Shown: positions 22,801 through 58,964, numbered from the stretch's first letter. The stretch is 64,000 nucleotides of DNA from a virus (IMGVR_UViG_3300032287_000883:1564-65563); one strand, 5' to 3'. Made by a program: numbers and translations. Notes: generated from the letters alone by a model not told the origin.

Positions 22801-22814
22801 CACTTTTGGGCAAT

Positions 22815-22841: not shown

Positions 22842-22857
22842 GGTTGGTCGGGGTTTA

Positions 22858-23430
22858 TTACTGGTATTGAATCAATACTTCAATTACTCGTTCTAAACAC
22901 TCAATACTTGTACAAGCTTTGATCTCGGCTATCGCTTCGTTGCGTAGTTCCTTGATCTCGTCACGCTCGGCTTTCTCGGTGTCGCGGGTTTTGATCTTCA
23001 ATACCTTCGCCAGTTCAGCGGCTTGGGCTTTCGCTACCTTGCTATCAGGATTTTTGGCTAGTGTTTGATAGCAAGCCTCAATCTGTGAGCGTAATACAGT
23101 TGCGGTTGCGTCAGCGTACTTGGTGATTAACTTATCCTCTTTCTCTTTACGCTCGGCGGCTTTTTTGATAGCGCCTTCACTTGTGGCTTTTGGTACTACG
23201 ACACCGAATCGTTCTACCAGTCTATCTTTGAACCGCTTAAACGCTTGGTCGGATGCATCGCCTTTCGCCTGTGGTTTGACGAATACATAACCGTTGATGA
23301 ATTCGACCCGAGCGGCTTGCCACGTTTCATAGGTTGGCTCGGTTCCTACTTCGCGAGCAAAAACTTCAAGGGATTCAACCGCATCAATCTCACTACGAGC
23401 GAACATTTCGCCTGATTTACTTGCACTCAT
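22858..23430 (-). CDS. Early helical protein (paralog B)
   Basis: RBS CTAGGAGAAA; paralog of 21945..22586. Confidence 0.85.
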   Translation of the reverse strand: MSASKSGEMFARSEIDAVESLEVFAREVGTEPTYETWQAARVEFINGYVFVKPQAKGDASDQAFKRFKDRLVERFGVVVPKATSEGAIKKAAERKEKEDKLITKYADATATVLRSQIEACYQTLAKNPDSKVAKAQAAELAKVLKIKTRDTEKAERDEIKELRNEAIAEIKACTSIECLERVIEVLIQYQ

Positions 23431-23481
23431 TTATTTCTCCTAGTTAAGACATAACGACCCGATGTCATTACGTCAGAATCA

Positions 23482-27539: not shown

Positions 27540-27588
27540 ACGACAACCTGACATGGTGTCAGTAAGTCTATAACTAGGAGAAACAAAA

Positions 27589-28650: not shown

Positions 28651-28659
28651 GAGAAAGTT

Positions 28660-28896
28660 ATGGAAGATAACGATTCGAAAGTAGTTCACGACTTAATCGA
28701 CAAGATAGGTAACGTGATTGATGGGGCCAACATGGGGCATGTTATCCCTGCCCTTATCTATTTGTTAGCTACATCACAGAGTAACGAGATCATGTCAGAG
28801 GAACATTTTGTTAAGAGCGTAGCAGAGGATTTGCTCAACTGGTTCGTTACATTTAAGAAAGCCGAAGCGACAGGAGGTTCAGAATGGCTACAGTAA
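28660..28896 (+). CDS. Hypothetical protein
   Basis: RBS CTAGGAGAAA. Confidence 0.7.
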   Translation: MEDNDSKVVHDLIDKIGNVIDGANMGHVIPALIYLLATSQSNEIMSEEHFVKSVAEDLLNWFVTFKKAEATGGSEWLQ

Positions 28897-32403: not shown

Positions 32404-32437
32404 TGACCGATTCAATGACCGTTCCCTAGGAGAAACT

Positions 32438-32887
32438 GTGAGAAAACTAATACAAAAAACTACGTACAAATTATGCAGCACCGAAGTCAAGATGTTGATC
32501 GACAAACTTGAAGAACATAGAGATGACTTAGGGCTTAGTGTCTTATCAAATAGGTTATCGCCTTCGCATGGCTTTATGCATATAGCCCGTGCCGGAAAGT
32601 TTACTTTTATGGAGAGTATTGCCTTAGCCTCTAAGCTAAATGAAATACACAGGGCAGCTACTAAGTTTTCTATAGTTGAAGCTGTCTTTCAATCTAAAGA
32701 AGAGAAAGAAATTCGCAACCGTGCGCAGTACAAGTCTCAGATGCCTAGTAAGATCATAGGTACTCAACATATAGTAGAGCAAGCAAAGGGGCTACTCGAA
32801 AAAGAATTGGCTAAAAGTTATAACAAACAGCTCAACGATCACATCAACGTTCACGTAGAAAGAGCGTGTAAGGATGGGTTGCTATGA
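32438..32887 (+). CDS. Hypothetical protein
   Basis: RBS CTAGGAGAAA, GTG start. Confidence 0.7.
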   Translation: MRKLIQKTTYKLCSTEVKMLIDKLEEHRDDLGLSVLSNRLSPSHGFMHIARAGKFTFMESIALASKLNEIHRAATKFSIVEAVFQSKEEKEIRNRAQYKSQMPSKIIGTQHIVEQAKGLLEKELAKSYNKQLNDHINVHVERACKDGLL

Positions 32888-35668: not shown

Positions 35669-35851
35669 ATGAAAAAATCTGAAATATTAGCCGTTGCGTT
35701 CTACATAACCATAGCCATGTTTTCTTTGTACTACTGCGTAAAGGTTATTTCAGGAGAGCCGCAGATCATGTGTGGCGTGGCAGAGATTAGTCCAGACTTC
35801 AGCGCAGCAGACCGCATGAGGTGCAGACAAATAAGAGGGCATAAGTTATGA
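35669..35851 (+). CDS. Small membrane-anchored protein
   Basis: N-terminal TM segment; C..AEISPDF...C. Confidence 0.65.
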   Translation: MKKSEILAVAFYITIAMFSLYYCVKVISGEPQIMCGVAEISPDFSAADRMRCRQIRGHKL

Positions 35852-37293: not shown

Positions 37294-37319
37294 TGGTATA
37301 AAAACTAGGAGAAATAACT

Positions 37320-38480
37320 ATGTATTACGTCAAACGATTTATGTCGTATGTGCTAGGGTTGTTTAGCCCCAAATACGAACCAATTGATAAGCCAGTTGTA
37401 AAAGAGAAGAATCCACGAAAGAAGCGTACGCCGTTCTACGTGTCTAAAGTTGATGGTAAGTCGGTGTCGTTTTCAGAATCCTTTTCTGAACTGCTGGCGA
37501 ATTTAAAGCATATGTTTGGGGTGATAGAACTTCCTACGTCACTATCGTGGATACCTGCCGACGAGAGGGTTGGGTTTACAAGATTAGGTATCTATATCCC
37601 CCATCCGTGGGAGATGACCATGATTAGTGATGATAAAGACGTAGTAGTAGAAAACATGGATTCTATGCCGACGATGATGGCAGTGGCATTTCCCCATGAA
37701 GATACTGAAGAAAGTGTATCCCCACAGGTATTTTACGCTTTGAAGTTGTCAAGACTACCGTTAGGCGTAGAGCCATTGCCGGGGCACCCATACAGGTTTG
37801 GGGAAGTGGTTAAGTTAGACGGCAAACTAATGTGGCTTGTCATGTATGTAGTTATTGATAAGTACACAGGTAAAGTGTCCATATGTCGAGAGCAGCGACA
37901 AGAGATAGTTGGGATAAAAAATAGACCGCGTAGTGAGCGAGACCGCACCCACTACAACAAGAAGTGGAACGGCAACCCCGCAATGATGCATGTGCATGAG
38001 ATGGAGAATAAAGACTTGCGCAAGGTGCAACACCATTACAAGATAATCTTTAAAAATGTATTCGATTGGTGGACACAGCGTAAAGACGAAAGCTGGAACG
38101 TATCTGTAAAGCGGGGTAAGCAACGACTAGTGTTCTCCCTAGACCGGATGGACACAAAGAAATACTTTGCCGACCGAGACCTAACTATTCGTGCAGCAAA
38201 TGGACAACGCAAAAAGATTATCCATTATGTAAGTCAGCATGAACGCATTGTAAAAGATAAGAAAATTACCATTAAAGAACATCTACGTGGCCTTAACAAG
38301 TTCACATGGAACGGATATGATTGTGTGGTAACAGCCCCTAAGTTCTCCCGCCTGAGTACCGTGATATTTGATCTCCCCCCACAGGAAGAGGAAGATTTAA
38401 TGAATGAAGAAGTGAAAATGGTTGGGATGACAAAGCTAGTTGACCTTTTAGCGAAACAAGAAGATTTGAAGTGGAAATAA
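37320..38480 (+). CDS. Hypothetical protein
   Basis: 386 aa; RBS CTAGGAGAAA; H.V..H.R..H.RG motif near the C-terminus. Confidence 0.8.
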   Translation: MYYVKRFMSYVLGLFSPKYEPIDKPVVKEKNPRKKRTPFYVSKVDGKSVSFSESFSELLANLKHMFGVIELPTSLSWIPADERVGFTRLGIYIPHPWEMTMISDDKDVVVENMDSMPTMMAVAFPHEDTEESVSPQVFYALKLSRLPLGVEPLPGHPYRFGEVVKLDGKLMWLVMYVVIDKYTGKVSICREQRQEIVGIKNRPRSERDRTHYNKKWNGNPAMMHVHEMENKDLRKVQHHYKIIFKNVFDWWTQRKDESWNVSVKRGKQRLVFSLDRMDTKKYFADRDLTIRAANGQRKKIIHYVSQHERIVKDKKITIKEHLRGLNKFTWNGYDCVVTAPKFSRLSTVIFDLPPQEEEDLMNEEVKMVGMTKLVDLLAKQEDLKWK

Positions 38481-38656
38481 TGGATACTAAATTTTGTACT
38501 GCATGCCAAGCAACACGCCCTACCGAGGGCGGCATGACAAGGAAAACTGGAAAGATTAACCGGTGGGTTTGCAAAGTATGCCAAGAGCGTAAAAATGTAA
38601 GCCCATATTTATCTGCATCGCGTAGACAAGGAGCCGATGATGCCGTACGTAAATAA
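38480..38656 (+). CDS. Small Zn-finger protein
   Basis: FCTACQ..RWVCKVC. Confidence 0.7.
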   Translation: MDTKFCTACQATRPTEGGMTRKTGKINRWVCKVCQERKNVSPYLSASRRQGADDAVRK

Positions 38657-38915
38657 ACCACGCCCATACAAACATGAGTACGAAACGTATGACGGTACAG
38701 AGAAGGTAAAGAAGAAACGCGCCGAACGTAATAAAGCACGGCGCATCATGATGGAAGCAGGTAAGGTGCATAAGGGTGACGGTAAAGACGTTGACCACAA
38801 AGTACCGTTGTCTAAAGGCGGTAAGACTACGAAAGGTAACTTGCGCGTTAAGACTGCAAGTGACAATCGTTCATATCCACGAAAGTCAGACCATACCGTA
38901 AAGAAGAATATTTAA
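38637..38915 (+). CDS. Small HNH-like nuclease
   Basis: GDGKDVDHK.PLSKGG....NLRV.....NRS. Confidence 0.8.
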   Translation: MMPYVNKPRPYKHEYETYDGTEKVKKKRAERNKARRIMMEAGKVHKGDGKDVDHKVPLSKGGKTTKGNLRVKTASDNRSYPRKSDHTVKKNI

Positions 38916-40472: not shown

Positions 40473-40500
40473 TTGACACTGTAAAGAAGTATGGTAGTAT
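40473..40500 (+). promoter_or_regulatory. sigma70-type promoter
   Basis: TTGACA-16bp-TAGTAT with extended TG. Confidence 0.65.
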
Positions 40501-40536
40501 AAGAAATCGGCTTTTGCCGAACACTAGGAGAAACCA

Positions 40537-40932
40537 ATGGCAACTGATCTACCTATCGATAAAATTATCGAGACGTATGTAAAAATACGTGATAAAAAAG
40601 AAGAGCTTTATCGCGCATACAAAAGCAACACCGCTGATCTTGAAGAACAAATGGCAGTGCTGAAACACAAGCTGCTTGAATTGTCTAAAGAGACTGGCGC
40701 TACCACTTTTTCTACCCCCGATTACACCGCATACCGTACAGTCAAAAATCGTTATTGGACTAACGATTGGGAAAGCTTTTACGGCTTTATGCAAGAACAT
40801 GCGGCTATGGGGCTTTTAGAAAAACGTATTCACCAAACAAACATGAAAGATTTCATGGAGGGTAATCCAGAACTGCACCCTCCCGGATTGCATGTAGACA
40901 GTGAATACGAGTTCACCATCAAACATAAATAA
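40537..40932 (+). CDS. Conserved replication-module coiled-coil protein
   Basis: Y.KIRD..DWESFY.F..LLEKRI.Q..PPG. Confidence 0.75.
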   Translation: MATDLPIDKIIETYVKIRDKKEELYRAYKSNTADLEEQMAVLKHKLLELSKETGATTFSTPDYTAYRTVKNRYWTNDWESFYGFMQEHAAMGLLEKRIHQTNMKDFMEGNPELHPPGLHVDSEYEFTIKHK

Positions 40933-40945
40933 CTAGGAGAAATAA

Positions 40946-41815
40946 ATGAGTGATCTTACTCTGTTTCAATCAAACAATCTGCCCGACTACTTAAAAGACG
41001 TTGAGCTTGATGACTTAACTAAATCGCTTGCTGGTAATACTTCTACTAAGCGCATCTCTATTCGTGGTGGCGTATTTCGCCTCATGGTATCTGGTGAGGA
41101 AGTAGCTAAGAACGAAAACCGTGCAATGAACGTCGTTATTGTTAACGGTGGTCGCGACATCGCTCGTCAATTCTATGCCGGTAAATACGTAGCTGGTGAG
41201 ACTGCTGCACCTGATTGCTGGTCAAATGACGGTAAGCGTCCTGATGCAAGCATTGAAAGCCCACAATACACATCATGCGAAGGTTGCCCACAGAACATTA
41301 AAGGTTCTGGTAATGGTGACTCACGCGCTTGCCGATTCCAACAACGTCTAGCTGTTTTGTTGGCTGATGATATTGAAGGTGACGTATACCAGTTGGCGTT
41401 AGCAGCTACTTCTATCTTTGGTCGTGGCGATGCCGACAAGATGCCTTTCCAACAGTACGCTAAATACGTTGGTTCGCAAGGTAAGAATATCAATACGCTC
41501 ATAACAGAGATGCGTCTGGACTCCGACTCGGATACTCCTAAGTTGACCTTCAAGCCAGTTAAGTTCTTGACCCGCGAACAATGGGAGATTGCTCGTGAAA
41601 AAGGTGACAGCCCTGCAGCTAAAGCGGCGATTACGCAGACCCCTGCGACTACTGATGGTGCTAAACGAAAAGCGTTGGCGAAACCTGAAGCCAAGGTTGA
41701 GGTCGAAGCTGAGGAAGTTAGTGAGCCGACAAAGCGTACGACGAAGAAGAACGCGGAACCTGCTGCGAAGAAGGACTTTGTGGATGTGATCAATAGCTGG
41801 TCAACTGATGACTAA
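40946..41815 (+). CDS. ssDNA-binding / recombination-type protein
   Basis: RISIRGG.F, PDCWS.DG..PD, C..CP.N..GSG..ACR; acidic C-terminus ending W..DD. Confidence 0.6.
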   Translation: MSDLTLFQSNNLPDYLKDVELDDLTKSLAGNTSTKRISIRGGVFRLMVSGEEVAKNENRAMNVVIVNGGRDIARQFYAGKYVAGETAAPDCWSNDGKRPDASIESPQYTSCEGCPQNIKGSGNGDSRACRFQQRLAVLLADDIEGDVYQLALAATSIFGRGDADKMPFQQYAKYVGSQGKNINTLITEMRLDSDSDTPKLTFKPVKFLTREQWEIAREKGDSPAAKAAITQTPATTDGAKRKALAKPEAKVEVEAEEVSEPTKRTTKKNAEPAAKKDFVDVINSWSTDD

Positions 41816-41817
41816 TC

Positions 41818-42060
41818 ATGGACAACCGTGGTTACGCTTCAAGAATCACCAAAGCGAACTTAGCGGCTAGTGTGGAAAGCCCCGGTGTAGCGCTGGGGCG
41901 CTTCTGCATTACCAAAGAAATTCCAGTATCAGATGTAGCAGAATATTTTGGCGTTAGTAGGATGACTATCTACAAATGGTTTGTAGGCGAATGGGTACCT
42001 CGCAAATCTAACGCTGAAAAGATATGGGACATGCTGAAACGAGCTAAGTTCTCCCTATAA
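41818..42060 (+). CDS. Cro/CI-type HTH DNA-binding protein
   Basis: VSDVAEYFGVSRMTIYKWF.G...P. Confidence 0.8.
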   Translation: MDNRGYASRITKANLAASVESPGVALGRFCITKEIPVSDVAEYFGVSRMTIYKWFVGEWVPRKSNAEKIWDMLKRAKFSL

Positions 42061-42083: not shown

Positions 42084-44927
42084 ATGGCAAAGACAGACTT
42101 GTTGTCCGCTGTACTCTCCGATGAAGGATGGTACTGCGTAGTGGGTCTAAAGAAGACCGGAATGCCGAAGCAAGTATTCGTGCAAACTCTGGGGGAAGTT
42201 GATCAGGAAATAGATGATTTACTAGCAAAGAACTATGACGTTTACTTTGCTTGTTCTAAGTACGAAATAAATAGCACTCGCACGACCGACAACGTCAAGA
42301 ACATCAAAGCGTTCTGGTTGGATATTGACTGCGGCGAAGGCAAGCCATACGCGTCACAAGGAGATGGAGTACAAGCACTTAAACATTTTTGTGCTGATCT
42401 CGGCTTACCTAAACCAACGTTAGTTAATTCAGGTCGTGGGGTGCATGTTTATTGGGCGCTCAAGGAGCCTATCACTCGGCAACAATGGAAGCCAGTTGCT
42501 GACAGGTTAAAGATAATTTGCCACGAACGTGGACTCCATGCAGACCCTGCTCGTACTGCTGATGCGGCTTCTATTCTTCGCATACCCGAAACATTTAATA
42601 CAAAAAGCGACCCTCCGTTAGATGTAGTCTTGATGTGTATTGGCACTGAGACTATTTACGAGGAATTTAAAAACATCGTAGGCATACTTGAAGAAGCTCC
42701 TGAGTATGCTCACACTCAGATTAACGAGTTAACAAAATCGTTGATGGGTAATAAGCAATCTCGATTCTCGACCATTATGATGAAGGTTGAGAAAGATAAC
42801 GCTTGCCCTCAGTTAGCTTCAGCAGTTGCAGATCAAGAGACTTTAGAAGAGCCTCGATGGAGAGCCGCGTTATCTATAGCCGCACATTGTGTGGATATGG
42901 AAAAGGCTGTGCATGACATATCGTTTAAGCATCCTGAGTATTCAGAGTCGGGAGCTTTAAACAAAGCATCGAGGATAAAAGGGCCATACACTTGCGACGC
43001 GTTTAGCAAGATCAACCCTGACGGCTGTAATAATTGTCCGAATAAAGGCAAGATCACATCTCCTATTGTGCTTGGGCAGGAAATTGTAGCGGCAGAACCA
43101 GAAGATAACGTCGTGCAGTTTACCGCAGCCGACGCGATTAAGCCGGTGACTTACACCATACCAGAATACCCGTACCCATATTTTCGCGGTAAGACGGGTG
43201 GTGTGTACAAGAAAGCAGACGACGAAGATGAAGACGAAGCCGTGCTTATTTATGAGCATGACCTCTACGTAGTAAAACGTATGAAAGACCCTCAGCATGG
43301 TGAAGTTGTCTGGATGCGATTGCACACTCCCAAAGATGGTGTGCGAGAGTTTGCACTTCCGGCGGTTGACTTGCTGACCACAGAAAAGCTACGAGAAAAA
43401 CTGGCGTGGTTTGGCGTTATCGCGATGAAAAAACAGATGGACACGATCATGGCTTACATCGTCAGATTTACAAAAGAACTGCAATGCAGAGAAGGAGCAG
43501 ACATTATGCGTACTCAGTTCGGGTGGACTGATAGTAATCGTTCATTCGTTATAGGAGATACCGAGATATGCGCTGATGGTGACCGCTATAGTCCCCCATC
43601 AAGTTACACTGCGCCCCTTGCTGATTATTTTATTCCTGTAGGTTCGTTGGAAGAATGGAAGAAGGTAATCAGCGTGTATGACATGCCGGGGCTTGAGCCT
43701 ATGGCGTTTGGGTTTTTTACCGGTTTCGGCGCACCGTTACTGAAACACTTAAACCTCAAAGGTGCCCTGATCAACATGATCAACAACCAATCAGGCACGG
43801 GTAAAACCACGGCGATCAAAGCGATGCATAGCATCTATGGGCACCCAGAAGAAGTGATGTTGATTCAGCGGGATACCATGAACGTCAAGCTACATAGGCT
43901 AGGGGTAATGAACAATTTACCACTTGGTTGTGACGAGCTTACTAAGATGACTCCAGAGGATTTCTCTGACCTGTCATACGCTGCTTCGCAGGGTAGGGGT
44001 AGAGCTAGGATGAAGTCTAGTGAAAACGCCGAGCGTAATAACTTCGCTAGATGGGAAACAATCCTCTTATGTTCTTCAAATGCTTCTGCTGTAGATAAGC
44101 TGAAGTCCTTAAAGGCAACGGCAGACGGTGAGTTGATGCGTGTTATCGAGTACAGCATTCCTGAGACTAAGGTAATGACGAAAGAGGAAGCCGACGAAAT
44201 CTTCCCTAAGTTGTACACCAACTACGGACATGCTGGGCGTATCTACCTCCGTGATCTGGTTTGTAACCTTGAAGAACGTATCAGGGAAATAAAAGACATA
44301 CAGCTTCTTATCGACCGCAAAGTCGGCTTTACAAACCGAGAGCGTTTCTGGTCAGGCGTGGCAGCTTGCAATATTGCCGGTGCTATGTTTGCACGTAGAC
44401 TTGGTTTGATAGACATCGATGTTGGCAGAGTGTTCAAGTGGTTAGTTAAAGAGTTCACTCAGATGCGTCAGGAGATTAAGCCCCCTGCATCTAGCTATGC
44501 TAGCGTAGTAGGAGAGTATTGGAACGAACAGCGCCAGAATACTTTGGTTATTAACGACGAGATAGATAAACGCACGGGGGTCGAGTTACTGCCGATTCTG
44601 GAGCCGCGAGGGGAGTTGACGGTGCGTATGGAACCGGATACTCAGAAGCTCTTTATCATCTCTAAGAAGTTCCGCGAGTATTGTTCGAAGAACCAGATAA
44701 CATTAAAGGATGTTTTGAACGCGTTGGCATCGGAAGGAGTTTACGTCGGTGCTATCAAAAAACGGATGTCTAAAGGCACAAAGCTATCAAGCACCCCGCC
44801 AGTAGATACTTATGTTTTTGATTGCTCCCGTGGCGATTTCCTTGATCCTGATACATACATCGATGCGGCGAAAGCCGAAAACGTTGCAGATGGTGAGGCA
44901 TTAGCCACCGGCACTGATGGTCATTGA
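42084..44927 (+). CDS. Primase-helicase (AEP/RepB-like primase plus DUF927-type P-loop)
   Basis: WLDIDC, SGRGVHVYW, LRIP.T.N, Cys cluster, FGW, SGTGKTT, CDE. Confidence 0.85.
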   Translation: MAKTDLLSAVLSDEGWYCVVGLKKTGMPKQVFVQTLGEVDQEIDDLLAKNYDVYFACSKYEINSTRTTDNVKNIKAFWLDIDCGEGKPYASQGDGVQALKHFCADLGLPKPTLVNSGRGVHVYWALKEPITRQQWKPVADRLKIICHERGLHADPARTADAASILRIPETFNTKSDPPLDVVLMCIGTETIYEEFKNIVGILEEAPEYAHTQINELTKSLMGNKQSRFSTIMMKVEKDNACPQLASAVADQETLEEPRWRAALSIAAHCVDMEKAVHDISFKHPEYSESGALNKASRIKGPYTCDAFSKINPDGCNNCPNKGKITSPIVLGQEIVAAEPEDNVVQFTAADAIKPVTYTIPEYPYPYFRGKTGGVYKKADDEDEDEAVLIYEHDLYVVKRMKDPQHGEVVWMRLHTPKDGVREFALPAVDLLTTEKLREKLAWFGVIAMKKQMDTIMAYIVRFTKELQCREGADIMRTQFGWTDSNRSFVIGDTEICADGDRYSPPSSYTAPLADYFIPVGSLEEWKKVISVYDMPGLEPMAFGFFTGFGAPLLKHLNLKGALINMINNQSGTGKTTAIKAMHSIYGHPEEVMLIQRDTMNVKLHRLGVMNNLPLGCDELTKMTPEDFSDLSYAASQGRGRARMKSSENAERNNFARWETILLCSSNASAVDKLKSLKATADGELMRVIEYSIPETKVMTKEEADEIFPKLYTNYGHAGRIYLRDLVCNLEERIREIKDIQLLIDRKVGFTNRERFWSGVAACNIAGAMFARRLGLIDIDVGRVFKWLVKEFTQMRQEIKPPASSYASVVGEYWNEQRQNTLVINDEIDKRTGVELLPILEPRGELTVRMEPDTQKLFIISKKFREYCSKNQITLKDVLNALASEGVYVGAIKKRMSKGTKLSSTPPVDTYVFDCSRGDFLDPDTYIDAAKAENVADGEALATGTDGH

Positions 44928-45114
44928 TGGGGTTAGCTACAATGTGAATTGGAGGAAGTTCCCGATAGGGGCTTCCTTTTTTATCCCTTGCATACATGCA
45001 CAGCAAGCCAGAGAAGATGTGAGAGCCGTTGCTCGCCGACTTGGATTTAAAGTAATTAGTAAAGTTGTAATCGAAGAAGGTATTCGAGGCTTGCGAGTTT
45101 GGAGAATTAAGTAG
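44917..45114 (+). CDS. Small conserved protein
   Basis: W..F..G.SFFIPC..GLRVWR. Confidence 0.75.
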   Translation: MVIDGVSYNVNWRKFPIGASFFIPCIHAQQAREDVRAVARRLGFKVISKVVIEEGIRGLRVWRIK

Positions 45115-45120
45115 TATGAT
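45091..45120 (+). promoter_or_regulatory. Possible promoter for an intergenic sRNA
   Basis: TTGCGA-18bp-TATGAT. Confidence 0.45.
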
Positions 45121-45125
45121 GGGCA

Positions 45126-45235
45126 CTCAACGTTTTTTTCACGTTGTTTCTCCTGTGTTACCCTCTTGGCATTCTTCTCGCTTGGCTAAGAGGCTTTATA
45201 CCCCCGGCATCCCCTCTTCGCCGGGGGTCTTTTTT
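45126..45235 (+). ncRNA. Candidate three-hairpin sRNA with an anti-RBS segment
   Basis: Hairpins 45128-46, 45162-93, 45200-28 with pyrimidine-rich loops; UUGUUUCUCCUG at 45144-55. Confidence 0.5.
45200..45235 (+). terminator. Terminator at the convergence of the two transcription arms
   Basis: ACCCCCGGC-11nt-GCCGGGGGT-C-T6. Confidence 0.85.
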
Positions 45236-48200
45236 AGTCCTCGTCTTCAGCAAACTCACCCATCTCCGACACTTCACTACGCAGTTTCTTGGTAATGTCC
45301 GCACCGAAAGCTTCTGTTTCAGCAGCGCGAGTAGCTCTCTTCTTAAATGACTCTCTGATTTTTTTAGGGGTGATAGCTAGGCCGGGGTGCTTTGAACTAA
45401 AGTCACTTGCCCGTTCAAGAGCATCATCAAACGCTTCAGAATTATCACGCTCCATCCATAGCCGGTTCATGATTGCGTTGCGTTCGTCCAAAATCTTTTG
45501 CTCTTTAAGTTTCATCGCAATAGCGGCTTTTTGTTTTTGGGCTAGGCGTTCAGGCTGAAGGCCGATTGCTTGCATAGCTAATTCTGTGGCTGTAAAGTCA
45601 TCCAGTACCACATCGCCACCCTTGGTGGTTGCCCCCTCTTTACCCATACGTACAGCGGACATGGGTTTAGCTACAATCGCTGGCATCGCCGTTTCAATTG
45701 CACGCGAATACTGACCTTCTTTTGCAAGTTGATATACCTCGGTGCCCCGTAAGCCAAGCCCAACAACCGGCCCTGCGTTAGCTATTATTGATTCGATGAA
45801 ACTTTCACGGGCATCAGGAGAGTAACGACCATCTCTCCACAGAAGGGCTTTAGGGTCTAAGCTAATACGATCTGATATAGCCATACCCATAGCTGAAGGT
45901 ACACCACGGGAAACAACTTCTCCAGCGGTACGACCAACTTTTTCTGCGGTCTCTGGTTTCACACCTGCATTGGCAAGCATACCACCAAGGTATCCGCCAA
46001 ATTCGGTTTCCATATAGTTATAGAACCAAGTTTCCCAATTAAAATAGTCATCGTCATCATCACCAGCAAACATCTTGACGAGAGTGCCAATAACCAAAGA
46101 GAAGTATGGCATTGCAGCCTGACCACCTAGGACAGCGGTCATACCAAGAATACCCGCAAGCCGACGACGAGCTTCTTTGCCAAGCGCCTTTTGCTGGGCT
46201 TCAACTTCTTCTACCCGTTGGGCAATAATTTGGTCTTTGTTAGGAGCGGTTTTAAGTTCCGCTTCCAACATGTTTTTATACTGCTCAATTTCTTCTTTAT
46301 TAAAAGGTCTAACCGCGTAATCTAAATTCCGCCCAAGAGCGTACATCGCCAAGATTGGGTATTGTTTAAATTTCAAAAGCACCATACCGGCTGGATGTGC
46401 AAAAACACGCCCCTTCATCTGCCGAGAGAAGTCACCTAAAGTAAGTGCCGCTACCCGCGTAGCTTCTTCAATAGCAAGCTCAAACGCTTGGTTTGGTGTG
46501 TTCTTTATTTTATTTCCGTTAGCGTCCCGCAAGAAGACTCCACGTAATCCTTCCATACCCGGTTGGCGCTGATACTCATTTAATAGTTTTTCGTACGCTA
46601 GTTCAAACGTAGTCATCAAAACAATTTCACGGTTCATGCGTTCAGATTGGTGGAACAACCCGGACATGGTTTTCTTAACCATTGCACCCACGCCTGTATA
46701 TAGCTGCGATGGGCGGTCTCCTAGATTCATAACGTCGTTGGTTATGGATATATCAATCTGTCCGCTGTCGATAAACCGATCCGCTGCACGACGTAGTAAC
46801 GGAGAAAGATTTGCACCCTCCACAATGGAAGGGAAATGCACTCCTACAACCGTGCCATTTTTAATAGGACTAAAGACGCGTTTAGGTACCGTACCAAGAT
46901 ACACACCTAAGTTCTTCACAAGCAACGTATTTGCTTTGAGGTATCCATACGACCCGCCAAGATACGGCATAGCTAATTGCACTGCGCCAAGCGTATTAAG
47001 TATTGCCGTAAACGGAGCCGATAACATATAGTAAAACGTAAGCTCTGAGGCTTTACCCGCTACCTGTGCAGCAAGGCTTGTATCCTCGTTGCTCATAATA
47101 CTAGGCACGCGTTTCTCTACTTCGTTAATAAAGTCTCTGTGCATAGCTGCTTGGTCAGCATTCAGCATCTTAGCCTGTTCGGCGCTATCAATCTCGCTTC
47201 GTGCGTTGTTTAAGTTCTGCAAGAACTTTTCCGCAAACATAAACCGAGACTGCTGATACGCACTATGCACCGCAGTAGTAGCGAATACACGAAGCATGTC
47301 TGAACTAGCACCTTGAATTGCTTTACGGTTGATAAACATCTTCCGCATGCTTTGCTGTGGGAGTAGCACGTATACAAGCTGATTCAAGCTATCCTGCAAC
47401 TGTTCTTTTAAGTCGGCAGTATCTGTAGCAGAAATCGAATCTACTAACTCTTGCACATCTTTCAATACCTGAGTAGTACCTACGTTTCGGCTGTAAAGCT
47501 CAGAGATGCCGTTACCTTTACGGATAGATTCGCCAAGCTGTTTTTGTTTAACATTTCCTCTTGCCAGTTCTTTCTGCCTACGATTCATAGCAACGTTGCG
47601 TGCAAGTGAACTTTCAAATGTATAAAACTCTTTGAAGTTACCCGAACCGACTTGGAACCAGTAGTTACCAAAACGACGTAGTGGAAAATACGGCTTGACT
47701 AATTTATCTGGGCCAAATTGCTCATCAATCTTTTTAATTAGTTTTGCGCGTTCAACAGGGTCTTGAATAGCTGCCGCCCTACGCTTCATTTCGCGCACCA
47801 TCTCATTAACGGAGTTAGCGTAGAAGTTGCGAACGCGCCGATAAATATCTTTATACTCAGGTTTAAGCGCGTTCCAAGCTCTTTGCATTTCGGGGTTTAA
47901 CGTACCCGGTTGTGCGGTGTCTGGATCAACGCCTCGTATCGTCGCTTCCATCATGATGCGACCCATCAACTGAGATTGAGCAAAGTTCTTATTCTGTAAC
48001 TTAACCCAATCGGCGGTAATCTGCGAAGCGACGTTTAATTTCTTAGCGCGGTATGCAACCATGTCACGGATAGTTGTAAGTGCGCCAGTAAGCTGAGTAA
48101 ATTTAGTACGAGTTAAATCTTCAAGCTGCGTTAGGTTAAGTACAGGAAGGGTTACTTCCCGCAACATAGTGCTCTTTGAATCCCACACCGCAGGGCCAAT

Positions 48201-51200
48201 AATCTTTATTGCTGTTTTCCACTCCATGCGACCTGCATAAGCATCCTTCATAGTCTGCAGGATTGAGCTTTGCTGGCTCTCTGCATCGCGATAGCTAGTA
48301 GGAGTAGATATAGGGCCACGTACGCGTCTACCGCGCTTCTTACCTTGAGCAAAGTCTGGGCCTGAAGGTTTAGTTTCTTGGTATCGAGTGGCAGTAAATA
48401 ACTTCTCAGCTTCCGTCATTGCACGACTAGCAAGGTTATTAAACCCAACAAGTTTGAAGATAGCGTTAACAAACCTAGCTAAAAGCCCAGATTCTCCAGA
48501 GTAATTTGCCGCTGCTGGGTATGGAATCTTCTTTAATTCTTTAGCAAACTCAGGGTTAGTAAACAGTTCAGCAATAAATTCTTTTACGTTGCGAAACCCG
48601 TAGTGGTTAACCTTTATATTATCTTTAGCAAGGTTATAAAGTTTTTCTAGTTCATTCCGTGCAGCAAGTTGTTCAGGTGTAAGCTGAGATGGGTTTGCCT
48701 GTAGTAATGAAACCGTAGCTGCGTGAACTACTTCATGTAAGAATACTCTATTACCAATACCCCGAATTTTTTTGCTATTTAAGGTAATAGTGTCGAATAT
48801 ATTAAAGTACGCGCCCGGTATATTATTGATGTTAGACATCTGTTCATACACAATACTTACGTCTTTAATTTCATTAGCAATCGGCCCAAGACCTTTAACA
48901 AAAGTTGCATACTGACCAGCACCAAGCTGCAGTCTAAGAATAATTAACCCAGAAGCTACTCTCCCTATATTTGCAGGGTTGCGGTAGTCATAAAAGTATT
49001 GTGCATATATCTTGGGGCTAGCGGTCTCCACATAACTCATAATCCGACTGATTTGTGGGCCTACAAGTCTATCAATCGCTTTCTGTGCAATCTGTGCAGT
49101 ATTATCAAAGCCGATAGTAGTTTGTAAGTTAAGCGCCAAAAGTTTTGTAGCTAGTTCTCCATAGAACCCAGTCATACCCTTAGAGAGTATTTTTAATGCA
49201 CCGTTGAGGTCGTTGTTCTTTATAGCCTCTACTACAGAAGGATGTAAGTCTCCGGCCCTATTAAACTGCTCTTGAAGTTTTTTCTCTTCTGCACTGATTT
49301 CGGTTTCTGCCGTAGTCCAACCTTTGTTGGGGTTTATATTTGGGAATACTATGTTCTCGCCGTCCATCAACATTTCACGACTTACAAACGTACCATCCCC
49401 ACGCAACACGGCATTTAGTCCACGGATGATAGGGTCATCACTTGGTAGCGCAAAAACTTCTTTTAGTTTCTGTACAAGTTCTTTCAGGTACTGCATGACC
49501 CTACGGAATCTATTTTGGTAGGCTACACCGTACCTACCGGCGATAATATTAGAGCCAGTAACCGCCCAAAACTCTGAAGGGTTCATTAATGCGTAAAGCG
49601 CACGAGGTACTTCACCTCGTAAAATCATATTTAGCGCCCTGTTAAATGCGGATGCATCCTGAGTGGCATTAGCTTCTGCAACAACATGGAGGTAATTTAA
49701 TATATTTTCTTGGCGTACAACTTCCTCACGTAACTCTCTTAGTTTACTTTCAGCCTCAATACGTTTATTAATATCGGGGTGACTTAAGTTTTTGGTTTGC
49801 TTTTCTATTTCAGCATTAGCTTTATTACGCTTTTGCTCTGCTTCTTTTGTAGTAACCTCAAGTCTTACGCGCCATTCATTTCGTATTAGCTTACGTAAAT
49901 TGTCAGGGAGCATCCTTTCCATATGGTGCAGTATTTCATGCACTGCTGTAAGGTCGTCCATCTCCCTATACACACCGTTTCTATCGCGAACCAAGAATAG
50001 GTTTATGAGGCGTTGTGTTCGTTGGTATATACCGTCAGCGCTATCGGCAATAGAACCTCTAGTATTAGTTGGCTCGGCAATAGATATAGCTAAATCCGCA
50101 GCCATTGCACGGTTCTGCGTAAGGAACCAGATTGCCATATCAGCCATCTGTGGGGATATTTTCCCTTGCCTAGCTGCGTCTTCCAACGCTTTGACAACCC
50201 TACCAAATCCACGCTCTCTTGGTAAATTAGACCTAGTGGCGCTACGCATTGCGCGTTGTTCAGCAAGACGTTCCGTAAGTTTATTCATCTCACGGGTGTA
50301 CTCAAAATAGGTTATTGCACCGTCATTCCACAGTTGGTTGATACGGTTAACCCCATGTTGATTTTGCGGAACCATGTCCGCAAGAGAAACGTCTACCTGC
50401 GATAAACGACGTGCAAGATTAGGTAGTATGTCTTTATCCTGTATATCAGCAGATGTATCTTCAGTATCAACCGACTCTAAAACTCCTTTAGCTTTAAGTT
50501 CGGCTTGCCCTAACTTAATATATGCTTCTTGTCTTCTCTGCGCTAACGCATTTCTTTCTTCAGCAGACGCTGCCGAAAAGTACGCATTATTTGCGGCTTC
50601 AACTTCTTGTCTAGCAGCAACTACTTCAGGGTTCTTTGCTAACTCTGCATCTTCTCGTGTTTTTGTTTCGGCGGTTCTAGCGTCCATTAATTTTTTCTCA
50701 GACGCAACCCAATCCCAATGCGCTTCTATGCGCTGCTGTTCTAGCTCTTCATACTTTTTACGGGCAGGGGAGTTCTTTGCCGGGATGCGACCAGCCTTAG
50801 TCAAAAGCGCTTTTTGCTGTTCTACAATATTTCTTACTGCATCGTGTCGAGCAAGTTCTTCTTGTTCAAGCGCGGCTATATCTACGCCGCCTCTTACTTT
50901 TTCCTCATCCAATACTTCTTCTGCGACTGGTGTTGCATTAGCCCTAGCTTCTTTTACAAGTTCGTTTAAATCATTAAATATTTGCGTTGCTTCTTCTACT
51001 TTATATATAGATTCTCTAAGTCTAACTCCTACCTCATCTAATTTTTGCTTTGCTTCTTCAAATGCCTGATACGCAGATGCCTGTTCTTCTTCTGGAGTAT
51101 TTTCAGTAAGCGAATTAAATCTTTTTTCGGCGGCTTGGTATTCTGTCCATGCAGAACCGCCTTCTGCCATTACATCATCTTGTAGTTGCTGCGCCTGTAA

Positions 51201-52865
51201 AAGCGAATCATAAGCAGTATCTCCTTGCGCTTCTAATTCCGCTAATGTACTTGGCTGCGCTCCTGCTCCAGCTTCAGGTTGATCAGCAGGAACTCCAGAT
51301 ACATCCAGTCCTCCGGTAGTAGGTGTTGCAGCGGCTCCGGTATCGGTTCCTCCAGCGGGTTGTTCTGCACCAGTATCAGAAACGCCAGCGACATCAGCTC
51401 CGGACTCAGCTCCAATACCTGCGTTCTGCTCTGCAAGGTAATCATTAAATGCTCCTAGAAGCTCCTGCTCGTTTGCGGGGCGACCAAGTTCTGCATACAA
51501 CTGACGCTGTACACCTTCTACTTCTTGTTTAGTAAGACTGTCTAACGTACGTGCAGTGGGACCTTCAGGTGGTGCGGCTTCCTCTCGATCTGCAAGTGCG
51601 TCGAGGTCACGGATTGCTTGACCTTCACGAGTATTCGTTTCGGCTACATTTTTCTTAGCTGCTACTGCTCGCGTGCCTTCTATCGTAGCGGACATACCAA
51701 GACCGCCAATAGCTTCTGATAACGCAGAATCAACTACACGTATAATGTTTTCTTTAGTGAACGCATCGCCAGTCTGTTCACCAAGCATACGCTCGGCGTT
51801 GATCATCACAGTCTCTTGCAGACCACCAGTTAAGAATTCACTAGCACCGCTCTTAGCTGCAACCTTTGGAAGTGCGTTTAAAATTTCTCTACGAGTTTGC
51901 TGGCGTAATTCTCCAGACAAGATACGTTTAGCGATGTCGGCTTCAGGGCCAAGAACCGCGTCAAATAATCCACTAACAGTAGCCGCAGTTAACGTAACGT
52001 CTTTTGTATCACGGACGTATTTAGCAATTGCAGCGACACGTTTTTCTGGATCAGGTTCTTTCTGTACTTGCTTAGTAATATACTCAACACGATCTTGCGT
52101 AGCAGGGCCAAGCTCCATACCGATGCTAGTACCAACAACACCGGGAGTTCTAGCTAATAGACCGGAAGCAATTACTGGCGCCCACTGTGGGATAGCCTCG
52201 CCAAGTTTACTTGCAACGTAACTACCAGTATCTCCGAGTCCACCAATTTCCGTAAACTTATCTATTCGAGGGGCATAAGGCTCGGCTTGTTTTTTGATCT
52301 GTTCACTATAAGCAATTGCTTCGCCAAACTTTTGAGACTTGTCTTGAAGTTCGGTCTGCATTTCGTCACGTAATTTCTTACGGTCTTCTGGGGATGCATT
52401 TAGATAATTTTGTGCTAGACCAATAGAACGTAAAACTTCTCCGGGGCCTTTTCTTCCTTTTTCTAACCCCAGTGTGCTTGTTATGTCCTCGGCAATATCT
52501 CTCTTTACCCCAAGGAAATTATTGATTTCTTTCTTAGACTTGAGTTCCCCAGCATCGATCTTGTCGAATGCAGTAAGCGCTGTATCTGGTACGTCCATAC
52601 CAAGCGCGTAGTACCGCTGCTGTAATCCAGCAGGGATATTTTGTAAGTTGATTCCTCCACGCACAATCCCTTTAGGTAGCTCCCATAAATTAGATGGTTC
52701 TACAGGAGGCTCCGCAGCTTTCTGATCAGCGAACGGGTTTGTTATTAGCGGCTGTTGTGCTTGGGCAAAAGGGTCAATGATCCCTGTAGGAGCTTTAGGG
52801 GCAAAAGGGTCAATGATGCTACTCTCTGCCCTTCTCTGAGGCGCAAAGGGATCAATGATTGCCAT
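45234..52865 (-). CDS. Giant internal virion/ejection protein with two zincin-like motifs
   Basis: 2543 aa; HEILH..EFWA and HEVVH..EFIAE; N-terminal IIDPFA repeats; last gene of the ejection cluster. Confidence 0.75.
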   Translation of the reverse strand: MAIIDPFAPQRRAESSIIDPFAPKAPTGIIDPFAQAQQPLITNPFADQKAAEPPVEPSNLWELPKGIVRGGINLQNIPAGLQQRYYALGMDVPDTALTAFDKIDAGELKSKKEINNFLGVKRDIAEDITSTLGLEKGRKGPGEVLRSIGLAQNYLNASPEDRKKLRDEMQTELQDKSQKFGEAIAYSEQIKKQAEPYAPRIDKFTEIGGLGDTGSYVASKLGEAIPQWAPVIASGLLARTPGVVGTSIGMELGPATQDRVEYITKQVQKEPDPEKRVAAIAKYVRDTKDVTLTAATVSGLFDAVLGPEADIAKRILSGELRQQTRREILNALPKVAAKSGASEFLTGGLQETVMINAERMLGEQTGDAFTKENIIRVVDSALSEAIGGLGMSATIEGTRAVAAKKNVAETNTREGQAIRDLDALADREEAAPPEGPTARTLDSLTKQEVEGVQRQLYAELGRPANEQELLGAFNDYLAEQNAGIGAESGADVAGVSDTGAEQPAGGTDTGAAATPTTGGLDVSGVPADQPEAGAGAQPSTLAELEAQGDTAYDSLLQAQQLQDDVMAEGGSAWTEYQAAEKRFNSLTENTPEEEQASAYQAFEEAKQKLDEVGVRLRESIYKVEEATQIFNDLNELVKEARANATPVAEEVLDEEKVRGGVDIAALEQEELARHDAVRNIVEQQKALLTKAGRIPAKNSPARKKYEELEQQRIEAHWDWVASEKKLMDARTAETKTREDAELAKNPEVVAARQEVEAANNAYFSAASAEERNALAQRRQEAYIKLGQAELKAKGVLESVDTEDTSADIQDKDILPNLARRLSQVDVSLADMVPQNQHGVNRINQLWNDGAITYFEYTREMNKLTERLAEQRAMRSATRSNLPRERGFGRVVKALEDAARQGKISPQMADMAIWFLTQNRAMAADLAISIAEPTNTRGSIADSADGIYQRTQRLINLFLVRDRNGVYREMDDLTAVHEILHHMERMLPDNLRKLIRNEWRVRLEVTTKEAEQKRNKANAEIEKQTKNLSHPDINKRIEAESKLRELREEVVRQENILNYLHVVAEANATQDASAFNRALNMILRGEVPRALYALMNPSEFWAVTGSNIIAGRYGVAYQNRFRRVMQYLKELVQKLKEVFALPSDDPIIRGLNAVLRGDGTFVSREMLMDGENIVFPNINPNKGWTTAETEISAEEKKLQEQFNRAGDLHPSVVEAIKNNDLNGALKILSKGMTGFYGELATKLLALNLQTTIGFDNTAQIAQKAIDRLVGPQISRIMSYVETASPKIYAQYFYDYRNPANIGRVASGLIILRLQLGAGQYATFVKGLGPIANEIKDVSIVYEQMSNINNIPGAYFNIFDTITLNSKKIRGIGNRVFLHEVVHAATVSLLQANPSQLTPEQLAARNELEKLYNLAKDNIKVNHYGFRNVKEFIAELFTNPEFAKELKKIPYPAAANYSGESGLLARFVNAIFKLVGFNNLASRAMTEAEKLFTATRYQETKPSGPDFAQGKKRGRRVRGPISTPTSYRDAESQQSSILQTMKDAYAGRMEWKTAIKIIGPAVWDSKSTMLREVTLPVLNLTQLEDLTRTKFTQLTGALTTIRDMVAYRAKKLNVASQITADWVKLQNKNFAQSQLMGRIMMEATIRGVDPDTAQPGTLNPEMQRAWNALKPEYKDIYRRVRNFYANSVNEMVREMKRRAAAIQDPVERAKLIKKIDEQFGPDKLVKPYFPLRRFGNYWFQVGSGNFKEFYTFESSLARNVAMNRRQKELARGNVKQKQLGESIRKGNGISELYSRNVGTTQVLKDVQELVDSISATDTADLKEQLQDSLNQLVYVLLPQQSMRKMFINRKAIQGASSDMLRVFATTAVHSAYQQSRFMFAEKFLQNLNNARSEIDSAEQAKMLNADQAAMHRDFINEVEKRVPSIMSNEDTSLAAQVAGKASELTFYYMLSAPFTAILNTLGAVQLAMPYLGGSYGYLKANTLLVKNLGVYLGTVPKRVFSPIKNGTVVGVHFPSIVEGANLSPLLRRAADRFIDSGQIDISITNDVMNLGDRPSQLYTGVGAMVKKTMSGLFHQSERMNREIVLMTTFELAYEKLLNEYQRQPGMEGLRGVFLRDANGNKIKNTPNQAFELAIEEATRVAALTLGDFSRQMKGRVFAHPAGMVLLKFKQYPILAMYALGRNLDYAVRPFNKEEIEQYKNMLEAELKTAPNKDQIIAQRVEEVEAQQKALGKEARRRLAGILGMTAVLGGQAAMPYFSLVIGTLVKMFAGDDDDDYFNWETWFYNYMETEFGGYLGGMLANAGVKPETAEKVGRTAGEVVSRGVPSAMGMAISDRISLDPKALLWRDGRYSPDARESFIESIIANAGPVVGLGLRGTEVYQLAKEGQYSRAIETAMPAIVAKPMSAVRMGKEGATTKGGDVVLDDFTATELAMQAIGLQPERLAQKQKAAIAMKLKEQKILDERNAIMNRLWMERDNSEAFDDALERASDFSSKHPGLAITPKKIRESFKKRATRAAETEAFGADITKKLRSEVSEMGEFAEDED

Positions 52866-58261: not shown

Positions 58262-58635
58262 GCGTAGTTACTCCTGTCGCAGCGAAGCAGTATTTTACCG
58301 TCATGTGCGCTTAATTTAACGAATCCTAACCTTTCGCAGAACCGTAGTCCAGCTTGGTTTTCTTCACGTACTTGAGTTACGGCGTAGCCGTATTTATCTA
58401 TTACACCACCGAGGATGGTCCGAATATACGCCCGAATAGACCCAATTGGCTTAACCCCGTATCCTACATGAATCTCGTTATTTTTTACTAACACACCACC
58501 TATAACTTGCCCTAATTCGGTCAAGGGTATAACTTCCCAATCTTTTACTGCCTCTATATACTCAACCAGCCCGATTGTTAAGCGATGCTTTACAGACTCA
58601 TACACCATAATTAAGGCGCGGTCTTGGGGGGTCAT
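58258..58635 (-). CDS. GNAT-family acyltransferase
   Basis: TQVREENQAGLRFCERLGF (GNAT C-terminal motif); between nozzle and ejection genes. Confidence 0.75.
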   Translation of the reverse strand: MTPQDRALIMVYESVKHRLTIGLVEYIEAVKDWEVIPLTELGQVIGGVLVKNNEIHVGYGVKPIGSIRAYIRTILGGVIDKYGYAVTQVREENQAGLRFCERLGFVKLSAHDGKILLRCDRSNYA

Positions 58636-58964
58636 GGCGCTATCTTTACGACATACGTCGCCGTGTCGTAGTACAAATCCCCCGTACGCAGCCTACCTGC
58701 AGCTAAGTCAGCTTGTGTTGGCAAACTTATACGACGTGCTCCAGTAACCGCATTAAGTTCGCTAAAGTTGTACCCAGAGATAACTTCTTCCACCCCACTT
58801 ATGGGGCTTAGTATGCGTTGTGTAGAACCTGCGCTTGGGCCGGGGTTGTCTAGTTGCGAAAAGTACAAACGCAAAATAGTGTTTAACTGATCCTGATATT
58901 TTTGGTCGTATTGGATTGGGGCCAGTGGCAGCGTGGGGAATTTGGTTGTACCCGTAGACATCAA
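58632..58964 (-). CDS. Small tail-associated protein
   Basis: LPLAP..YD...QLN..LRLYF.QLD. Confidence 0.7.
   Translation of the reverse strand: MMSTGTTKFPTLPLAPIQYDQKYQDQLNTILRLYFSQLDNPGPSAGSTQRILSPISGVEEVISGYNFSELNAVTGARRISLPTQADLAAGRLRTGDLYYDTATYVVKIAP

Follow-up and report, generated by a model that had tools for sequence, protein, structure and literature searches.

A putative RNA gene at the meeting point of two genome arms

We analysed a stretch of 64,000 nucleotides (nt) of viral DNA (IMGVR_UViG_3300032287_000883:1564-65563; hereafter the window, to which coordinates refer unless another record is named), centring on a putative small-RNA gene at positions 45125-45235 of its plus strand. 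The window covers all but a small part of an IMG/VR virus record of 65,563 bases, rated complete by CheckV, and has a G+C content of 46%. Replication-type genes occupy the plus strand from about 24.7 to 45.1 kilobases (kb) and encode an ATPase, an HNH endonuclease, a DNA polymerase, a helicase and a 952-residue primase/helicase; the minus-strand arms carry packaging and virion genes, namely those for the large terminase, the portal, the major head protein, baseplate proteins and a 2543-residue protein. The RNA locus is the point at which the replication arm (+) and the late structural arm (-) converge, and lies between the stop codon of a 65-residue open reading frame (ORF), p65 (44917-45114, +), and that of the gene for the 2543-residue protein (45234-52865, -). 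The stop codon of this convergent gene overlaps the U-run of the predicted RNA terminator, and the late operon running towards the RNA gene lacks its own terminator for that direction. The features of the locus are as follows.

44917-45114, plus strand: p65, a conserved ORF of 65 residues that overlaps the primase stop codon and whose last codons carry the -35 element
45091-45096, plus strand: -35 element TTGCGA, within the last codons (Gly-Leu-Arg) of p65
45115-45120, plus strand: -10 element TATGAT, directly after the TAG stop codon of p65 and 18 nt from the -35 element
45125-45235, plus strand: predicted small RNA of about 105-110 nt, its 5' end inferred from the -10 element and its 3' end from the U-run
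45128-45146, plus strand: hairpin 1, CAACGT/ACGUUG with the loop UUUUUUC, from fold and covariation
45144-45155, plus strand: seed, UUGUUUCUCCUG / TTGTTTCTCCTG, with only its first 3 nt paired; its complement is (C)UAGGAGAAAC(AA)
45162-45193, plus strand: hairpin 2, CCTCTTGGC/GCTAAGAGG with a 14-nt CU-rich loop, from the fold
45200-45235, plus strand: intrinsic terminator, a GC-rich stem (45200-45228) followed by UCUUUUUU (six T), from fold and U-run

The promoter TTGCGA-18-TATGAT and three hairpins had been named in a preliminary description of the window, and both are borne out, as are its other sequence statements: the promoter is present at 45091-45120, where it is the sole promoter-like site in 44000-46500 (9 of 12 positions matching), and the fold of the plus strand over 45121-45240 has three hairpins (-39.6 kcal/mol, z = -4.98; none of 200 shuffled sequences folded as well). 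For the minus strand of the same segment the fold has z = -3.89. The terminator is one-way, since on the minus strand the stem is not followed by a U-run, and in the relatives, too, a U-run follows the terminator stem on the plus strand only. Taken alone, the window promoter is not above chance (one site, against a mean of 3.2 in shuffled sequences), and the case for a gene must therefore rest on comparison.

Conservation of the putative RNA gene in uncultured relatives

Among cultured phages primase identity is at most 31.8%, and relatives were drawn from IMG/VR by their primase: a first scan yielded 22 loci, and a profile scan, in which 466 of 599 matched stretches were confirmed, left 80 loci. 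The p65 ORF was found behind the primase in 83 loci (tblastn), and behind it we collected, from related uncultured phages, 57 distinct copies of the element. These homologous copies are about 65-80 nt long. All 57 were collected by the criterion of a G-run plus T5 or more, which makes the terminator count true by construction.

Of the 57 copies, 55 retain the promoter architecture, in which 17 or 18 nt separate TT[GT][AC][CG]N from TANNNT; the spacer is 18 nt long in 52 of them and 17 nt in 3. Nine variants of the -10 element occur (TATTAT in 22 copies, TATGAT in 9, TATCAT in 9, TATACT in 5, TAAGAT in 3, TACACT in 3, TAAACT in 2, TAATAT in 1 and TATAAT in 1), all of which have T1, A2 and T6. 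The leucine codon that falls in the -35 element is TTG in 53 of the 55 promoter-bearing copies and TTA in 2; genome-wide, TTG makes up 23% of leucine codons. The exceptions to this architecture are L059 and L022. Inspection by eye showed a TG-extended box in L022, and in L059 (4476-4626) a duplication of the last p65 codons and the promoter about 45 nt downstream, with the RNA gene behind the second copy.

The RNA gene is missing in L023, L029/L045, L036, L038 and L039, where the convergent gene abuts p65. Three of the four closely related lineages that lack it (L029/L045, L038 and L039) have CTA, not TTG, as the would-be -35 leucine codon; the RNA-less lineages with CTA probably go back to a single loss, and a link to the -35 element is suggestive only. 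At the homologous place in two distant cultured relatives by primase, Pseudomonas phage Rollin (31.8%) and Rhizobium phage RHph_TM3_14A (25%), there is a short gap or none, with no room for the element.

An alignment of the raw copies with MAFFT and RNAalifold recovered the terminator alone and misaligned hairpin 1, for which reason covariance models were used instead: R1, built from two near-identical copies, and R2, rebuilt from 23 matches. Searched against 62 sources, R2 gave 39 matches at an expectation value (E) of at most 0.01, all of them at the RNA locus and on its strand; the whole genomes G001, G002, G003 and G005 each gave one match, and G004, whose copy is of a different shape, is missed. 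The 39-copy alignment has 95.2% of its cells paired, as compared with 80.1% in shuffled alignments (0 of 500 as high) and at most 59.6% in controls in which the structure was slid along the alignment. Changes on both sides were seen in 11 of 14 base pairs, comprising 7 of 7 in helix 1 (hairpin 1; 93.9% of cells paired) and 4 of 7 in helix 2 (the terminator; 96.3% of cells paired), counts made after the alignment had been fitted to the model, a procedure that tilts them a little towards the structure. The only R2 match in the window, at 22815-22884 (-; E = 0.43), was rejected as an ordinary terminator. A second weak match of R1 (E = 0.16) lies at 4629-4702 (+) of L101, about 20 nt downstream of the RNA gene of that phage.

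Only the window and L002 have hairpin 2, an insertion of 32 nt. Its loop, AUUCUUCUCGCUUG, is CU-rich, and a 10-nt stretch, GAGAAGAATG, that precedes the gene for a 60-residue protein at 35669-35851 is complementary to the loop region; the loop may be a second seed.

No Rfam family matched the window at the gathering threshold. A relaxed search (Rfam 15; 44000-46500; E of at most 10) gave solely suhB/mmgR (RF00519; 23.3 bits, gathering threshold 41) and anti-hemB (RF02837; 22.2 bits, gathering threshold 49.5), both below threshold, and neither of the two reached gathering in the loci of 20 relatives, where int-alpA alone did so. The latter (RF02996; 38-51 bits, gathering threshold 35.8) lies just upstream of the primase gene in 7 of these 20 relatives, on the plus strand in each (L054:1422-1489, L062:1422-1488, L087:1424-1496, L090:1424-1496, L046:1401-1468, L060:1423-1489 and L085:1423-1496). 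The window has no int-alpA match at gathering, yet a helix-turn-helix (HTH, AlpA-like) ORF occupies that place (41818-42060).

Complementarity of the seed to the phage's own ribosome-binding sites

In nearly every copy hairpin 1 is directly followed by a pyrimidine stretch with complementarity to purine runs of Shine-Dalgarno type (for example UUUCUCCU, CUCCUUUC, UUCCUUUC and UUUUCCUU). A 6-mer complementary to the Shine-Dalgarno sequence, from a motif set picked after the data had been seen, is present in 54 of the 57 copies, whereas shuffled sets averaged 10.5 and never exceeded 18, and a 4-mer core is mostly unpaired in the minimum-energy fold of 49 of the 57. Comparative genomics thus supports two proposals of the preliminary description: that the plus strand carries a distinct RNA gene, with a promoter and a terminator belonging to it, and that the RNA has an accessible seed directed against the Shine-Dalgarno sequence.

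In the window itself the motif AGGAGAAA occurs 11 times, against 1.91 expected (none of 100 shuffled sequences reached 11). Nine of these sites stand before gene starts, in agreement with the earlier count of about nine early/middle genes sharing the motif core; one is the reverse complement of the seed, and one (57833, +) lies away from gene starts. The longer motif CTAGGAGAAA has 7 exact occurrences in the window against 0.07 expected, every one before a start codon, with 6 of the 7 on the replication arm and an AGGAG-to-start distance of 5-9 nt. The start of the ATPase gene reads ...CTAGGAGAAACAAAAATG, which gives a 12-nt pairing with the seed at 45144-45155, including one G-U pair, just as first described. 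The following are among the occurrences of CTAGGAGAAA.

27574-27583, plus strand: before the ATPase gene (27589-28650), an 11-nt Watson-Crick match to the seed
28647-28656, plus strand: before the gene for a 78-residue protein (28660-28896), from the motif count
32426-32435, plus strand: before the gene for a 149-residue protein (32438-32887), from the motif count
37305-37314, plus strand: before the gene for a 386-residue protein (37320-38480), from the motif count
40933-40942, plus strand: before the gene for a 289-residue protein, p289 (40946-41815), a site without co-variation with the seed across phages
23434-23443, minus strand: before the gene for a 190-residue protein (22858-23430), among the first genes of the leftward arm

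The seed also fits CTAGGAGAA(A) sites of several other genes in the window, in L004 and in L005. Next to the 190-residue gene, the intergenic region at 22600-22860 (-) heads the leftward arm and holds the terminator after gene 22858-23430; by eye, it also contains a promoter-like TTGCTA, 17 nt and GATAAT, followed by the site CAGGAGAAATAAAGATG of gene 21945-22586, which fits the seed as well.

One ribosome-binding site stands out across phages, that of the gene for a 131-residue protein, p131, the first cistron of the primase operon. Within the window it ranks 2nd of 103 genes by duplex energy. Its features are given below.

40473-40500, plus strand: consensus promoter (TTGACA, 16 nt, TAGTAT) directly before p131
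40524-40539, plus strand: ribosome-binding site and start codon of p131, CTAGGAGAAACCAATG, the conserved predicted target
40537-40932, plus strand: p131, 131 residues, first cistron of the primase operon

The predicted transcription unit comprises p131, p289, an 80-residue HTH protein, the primase, p65 and the RNA gene. A promoter comparable to that of the window precedes p131 in 46 of 49 phages, often together with the palindrome TTGACAAAGTCAA. As p131 sits behind a conserved consensus promoter, the target would be the 5' leader of a primary transcript, and from the predicted order of the operon the RNA would pair with the leader of the first cistron of the very unit that the RNA gene closes. 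In many relatives the palindrome overlaps the p131 promoter in an operator-like manner, and the 80-residue HTH protein of the operon is a candidate for binding it.

Across genomes, we counted gene starts (positions -25 to -1) with a perfect complement of at least 9 nt to the part of the RNA that precedes the terminator, in 20 genomes or large contigs whose genes were called by a crude home-made caller and whose gene starts are thus approximate. A mean of 2.05 genes per genome matched the phage's own RNA at this length, as compared with 0.69 for the RNAs of other phages (0 of 50,000 permutations), and the difference held in a subset of 17 less related genomes (p = 2e-5). Most of these matches use the seed and fall on genes of the RNA's own strand. 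At the level of single genes the signal is concentrated in p131. In 19 genomes the p131 site matched the phage's own RNA over 8.16 nt (-17.6 kcal/mol) and those of other phages over 5.98 nt (-12.0 kcal/mol; 0 of 100,000 permutations), and in 53 phages the values were 8.58 nt (-16.9 kcal/mol) and 6.18 nt (-11.7 kcal/mol; again 0 of 100,000). A match of at least 9 nt at the own p131 site was found in 26 of the 53 phages, in the form of 17 different matched strings of 9-13 nt, of which the following are examples.

Window: AGGAGAAAC
L084: AAGGAAAAGC
L054, L057 and L058: TGAAAGGAAGTA
L031, L032, L033 and L035: ACCAAGAGGA
L089: TTAACAAGGAAAA
L099: GAAGGAGCTAA
L092: ACCAAAATGA

The neighbouring p289, which has a conserved site of its own, showed no excess for the own RNA (p = 0.91); p296 gave p = 0.09, and the ATPase gene a weak signal (p = 0.02 by length, 0.007 by energy). 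These comparisons support the view that the seed co-evolves with the ribosome-binding sites of the phage that carries it, most strongly at p131. Co-variation of the seed with the ribosome-binding motif in related phages, which the preliminary description had named as a check, was thus found, and the proposed pairing with the phage's own early/middle sites stands in this respect. Its breadth does not carry over: the conserved predicted target is the single gene p131, a reach of nine genes is specific to the clade of the window, and the pairing energies are non-specific.

The product of p131 matches PHROG 13900 ('minor head protein') at 7.2e-24 and falls below the cutoff for Pfam DUF7307. Its AlphaFold2 model (predicted local distance difference test score, pLDDT, 85.6) consists of a 47-residue helix followed by a beta sheet, for which a comparison with solved structures (PDB) gave no match (best E 0.89); predicted viral structures (BFVD) were matched at E values down to 6.4e-7, among them 'Siphovirus Gp157' (1.2e-4) and 'Host-nuclease inhibitor' (3.6e-3). 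For p65, considered as a possible RNA chaperone, the AlphaFold2 model (pLDDT 92) gave generic alpha/beta structure matches only, with a best Z of 5.2 and no clear fold.

Interpretation, rival explanations and known systems

Comparison across phages establishes the architecture of the predicted gene, the structure of the putative RNA, the accessibility of its seed and the co-evolution of that seed with ribosome-binding sites. The locus displays the marks of a trans-encoded base-pairing small RNA, namely a predicted promoter of its own, a terminator with a U tail, a structure upheld by compensatory changes and an accessible seed that co-varies with its target. Plus-strand positions 45125-45235 are thus probably the gene of a trans-acting small RNA whose seed pairs with the phage's own ribosome-binding sites, with p131 as the main target. 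Host RNA polymerase would start this RNA at the sigma-70-type promoter, and transcription would end at the one-way intrinsic terminator. The predicted product has a 5' hairpin, a single-stranded pyrimidine-rich seed, a spacer (containing the additional hairpin in the window phage), a terminator hairpin and a U tail. Its seed would pair with mRNAs of the phage itself, at the Shine-Dalgarno region and the sequence on either side, as the co-variation suggests, and mainly with that of p131, a Gp157-like protein encoded by the first cistron of the operon that ends in the RNA gene; in the clade of the window the seed also fits other early/middle genes, as many as eight, in which the stereotyped site CUAGGAGAAA recurs. 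A small RNA that covers the Shine-Dalgarno region usually lowers translation. Pairing here would likewise cover the ribosome-binding site and reduce translation, and the outcome might be feedback or temporal control of p131 and, in the window's clade, of a set of early/middle genes. A shut-off at the switch to late expression is possible; speculatively, late transcription could equally silence or sponge the RNA.

Several observations weigh against this reading, beginning with the outcome of a search for RNA sequencing runs covering 43500-47000, which gave none: the promoter and the discrete RNA are predictions from sequence, the promoter of the window being at chance level when taken alone. 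The model R2 misses the window's own copy at E of at most 1, because of the 32-nt insertion that forms hairpin 2 (L002, which has the same insertion, scores E = 0.55), and the counts of paired changes, the choice of the 6-mers and the approximate gene starts carry the biases given above. Four of the 20 genomes (G004, G012, G018 and G019) have no gene that matches their own RNA over at least 9 nt, and 27 of the 53 phages have a perfect match shorter than 9 nt at their own p131 (5 nt in L004, 4 nt in L102), including some close relatives of the window with 5-7 nt. The phages compared are related and thus non-independent as samples. In the window, a duplex energy of -12 kcal/mol or lower was reached at 31 genes by the real seed and at 34 by the reversed seed (RNAduplex), which makes this measure non-specific. 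Finally, G-U pairs are not enriched at the flanks of the matches (6/55 as compared with 105/760, or 0.11 against 0.14), and the matches bear no RNA-specific signature by which pairing could be told from an inverted repeat at the DNA level.

The co-variation of seed and ribosome-binding site fits pairing in cis as well as in trans, and the 3' untranslated end of the p131-to-p65 mRNA might fold back onto its own p131 leader, about 4.6 kb away, and close the first ribosome-binding site with no separate small RNA. Target (40524-40539) and element (45144-45155) indeed share a strand and mark opposite ends of one predicted unit that starts at a consensus promoter and stops at the RNA terminator. We nonetheless consider such an arrangement unlikely, since a mere 3' end would have no need of -35 and -10 elements conserved in 55 of 57 copies, with variants that keep the promoter-critical positions, and since the seed of the window's clade fits genes outside the operon (27589, 32438, 37320 and, on the other strand, 22858-23430). 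The seed might instead be meant mainly for host mRNAs, its matches in the phage being a by-product of strong, purine-rich ribosome-binding sites. CU-rich 20-mers do pair widely, as the reversed seed illustrates (34 genes against 31), and the weak, sub-threshold Rfam resemblances are to the bacterial small RNAs suhB/mmgR and anti-hemB. What makes a host-directed RNA improbable is that the complementarity extends past the Shine-Dalgarno core into phage-specific flanks that change from phage to phage (the 17 strings of 9-13 nt at p131), and that the excess of own over other matches was equalled in 0 of 50,000 and 0 of 100,000 permutations.

A terminator that also stabilises the 3' end, with functionless hexamers and complementarity, would suit a place where two convergent arms need termination, and would agree with a window promoter no better than chance and with the short gap or absence of any gap in distant cultured relatives. 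It would leave unexplained the unpaired pyrimidine motif (54 of 57 copies against 10.5), the conserved promoter, and a co-variation seen at p131 and not in the neighbouring gene, and we hold it to be very improbable. The 9-13 base pairs shared by the p131 leader and the RNA locus could also be an inverted repeat of protein-binding or recombination sites, a view to which the unenriched flanking G-U pairs (0.11 against 0.14), with nothing RNA-specific detected, lend some room. However, the matched strings centre on the Shine-Dalgarno core before start codons, on the coding strand, their other end is the unpaired stretch between a covarying hairpin and a terminator, and the sites of one protein would be expected to stay constant, yet 17 forms occur; the chance that this account is right seems to us slim indeed. 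The alternative offered in the preliminary description, that CAGGAGAAACAAC-GTG on the minus strand is the ribosome-binding site and start of an 11-residue peptide (MKKTLSAHHTT), fared worst. The ORF does exist in the window, and similar ORFs of 10-11 residues are found in the near relatives L005, L008, L012 and L003, but it is not conserved: an ATG, GTG or TTG follows the Shine-Dalgarno-like 6-mer by 3-10 nt in just 27 of the 57 copies, and the lengths of the peptides, which have no conserved sequence, vary between 2 and more than 30 residues. Their common '...HHTT' ends coincide with the -10 box and the p65 stop codon read in reverse complement, the compensatory changes in hairpin 1 fit an RNA rather than a peptide, and promoter and U-run are on the plus strand, so that we give a micro-ORF next to no credence.

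If the small-RNA reading holds, its closest counterparts resemble it in part. The c4 RNA of phages P1 and P7 (immI region) is outlined in PMC12197685 and PMC8198154 as an antisense RNA from the same unit as its target, which pairs around the ribosome-binding site and blocks translation. The window RNA resembles c4, as so outlined, in being a phage RNA encoded in the transcription unit of its target and complementary to the surroundings of a ribosome-binding site on its own mRNA, with specificity set by matching sequences. Unlike c4, the predicted gene has a promoter to itself and closes the operon on the 3' side, its seed is a linear stretch after a hairpin, the seed of the window's clade fits a family of about 8-9 gene starts, and the element matches c4 in neither sequence nor structure, falling short of the Rfam C4 model. 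P1 and P7 reportedly differ by matched changes in c4 and its target, and c4 is said to lie upstream of its target and to be processed from the transcript. In phage T4 the RegA protein (and the RegB nuclease) recognises the initiation regions of early/middle mRNAs and lowers their translation; the likeness is one of logic only, RegA and RegB being proteins where the window's factor would be an RNA. In build the putative RNA is akin to bacterial trans-encoded small RNAs with C/U-rich anti-Shine-Dalgarno seeds, which share its size range of about 75-110 nt, its hairpins, its accessible pyrimidine stretch and its Rho-independent terminator. The suhB/mmgR and anti-hemB RNAs, which act on host mRNAs, are chromosomal, and the window scores far below their gathering thresholds. 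By these comparisons the predicted RNA is a new phage small-RNA family, outside the Rfam families including c4, with an unusually clear computational target.

Phage small RNAs have been called underexplored in the accounts given by a 2025 review (PMC12197685) and a 2024 preprint (10.1101/2024.10.31.621285), and those of uncultured, apparently lytic phages are barely charted. Here, sequence comparison alone yields a putative RNA gene, its structure, its seed and a named candidate target, and in dozens of phages the ribosome-binding site of that target varies along with the seed. RNA and target would thus form a regulatory pair open to falsification in environmental phages of a widespread group (over 466 primase relatives in IMG/VR). 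As the pairs of seed and ribosome-binding site differ between phages, they would amount to natural orthogonal translation switches. In a limited literature search we found no phage RNA paired with a stereotyped ribosome-binding motif of the phage's own genes.

The locus also suggests a testable answer to why some phages repeat an extended motif before non-structural genes, as in the start-associated sequence (SAS) of Cluster K phages. The SAS is described in passages of PMC3203893 and PMC11373665 as a 13-nt asymmetric motif with an AGGAG core that lies 3-9 nt before the starts of 13-19 non-structural genes and has a single copy in the opposite orientation; in these passages its function has gone unexplained since 2011, and a phage RNA or protein partner is left open. 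Akin to this, the window has its 7 exact copies of CTAGGAGAAA at gene starts, in one orientation, plus a near-copy in reverse inside the RNA gene. The window motif differs in sequence and length (10 nt as compared with 13 nt), the phages and hosts are unrelated, and motif and seed of the window family vary and co-vary whereas the Cluster K motif is nearly constant, which makes the two analogues and not members of one family. We tentatively propose, while thinking it more apt to be wrong than right, that stereotyped start-associated motifs in ribosome-binding sites are address labels of a phage antisense RNA that controls an early/middle gene set as an RNA counterpart of RegA, and that this would also explain the SAS of Cluster K. 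If this is true, label and RNA would be seen co-evolving for the first time in the window family.

The Cluster K phage Adephagia (L195, JF704105) has 16 forward SAS copies and one in reverse. The reverse copy lies in an unannotated 432-nt gap between gp92 and gp93 (38600-38730 of our extract, that is 58599-58729 of the record, +), in the 10-nt apical loop of a hairpin, and the region folds at -71 kcal/mol (z = -7.15). The region was found in 131 Cluster K records. Both hairpins are preserved in seven diverse phages, where 6 base pairs have changes on each side. DarthP has a different loop at the reverse copy but a canonical forward SAS, and no co-variation was seen in Cluster K. As a lead, we regard the reverse-SAS hairpin of Adephagia as a candidate anti-SAS RNA.

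Some further observations concern the phage itself. The window has no tRNA gene, no integrase was recognised among 27 of its proteins that were scanned (a subset of its genes), and no near-identical DNA was found in cultured phages. Judged by the terminase, 023Pt_psg01 (55.6%) and Pelagibacter phage HTVC027P (53.5%) are the closest phages in culture. The nearest genome-bin matches are contigs of metagenome-assembled genomes from Burkholderiaceae (40%) and Caulobacteraceae (42%). The latter contig (L181, JBBARR010000015.1, 64,095 bases), which is probably a phage contig, encodes a primase 42% identical to that of the window as well as a p65 homologue, and its binning with Caulobacteraceae gives a weak hint about the host. 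Behind its p65 homologue, at 5030-5115, lies an element of higher GC content that has a terminator as well as two CUCCU motifs and is matched weakly by R2 (E = 0.87). The 2543-residue protein (45234-52865, -) that ends the late arm of the window has a DarB-like C-terminal region (PHROG 10089, 1.5e-47).

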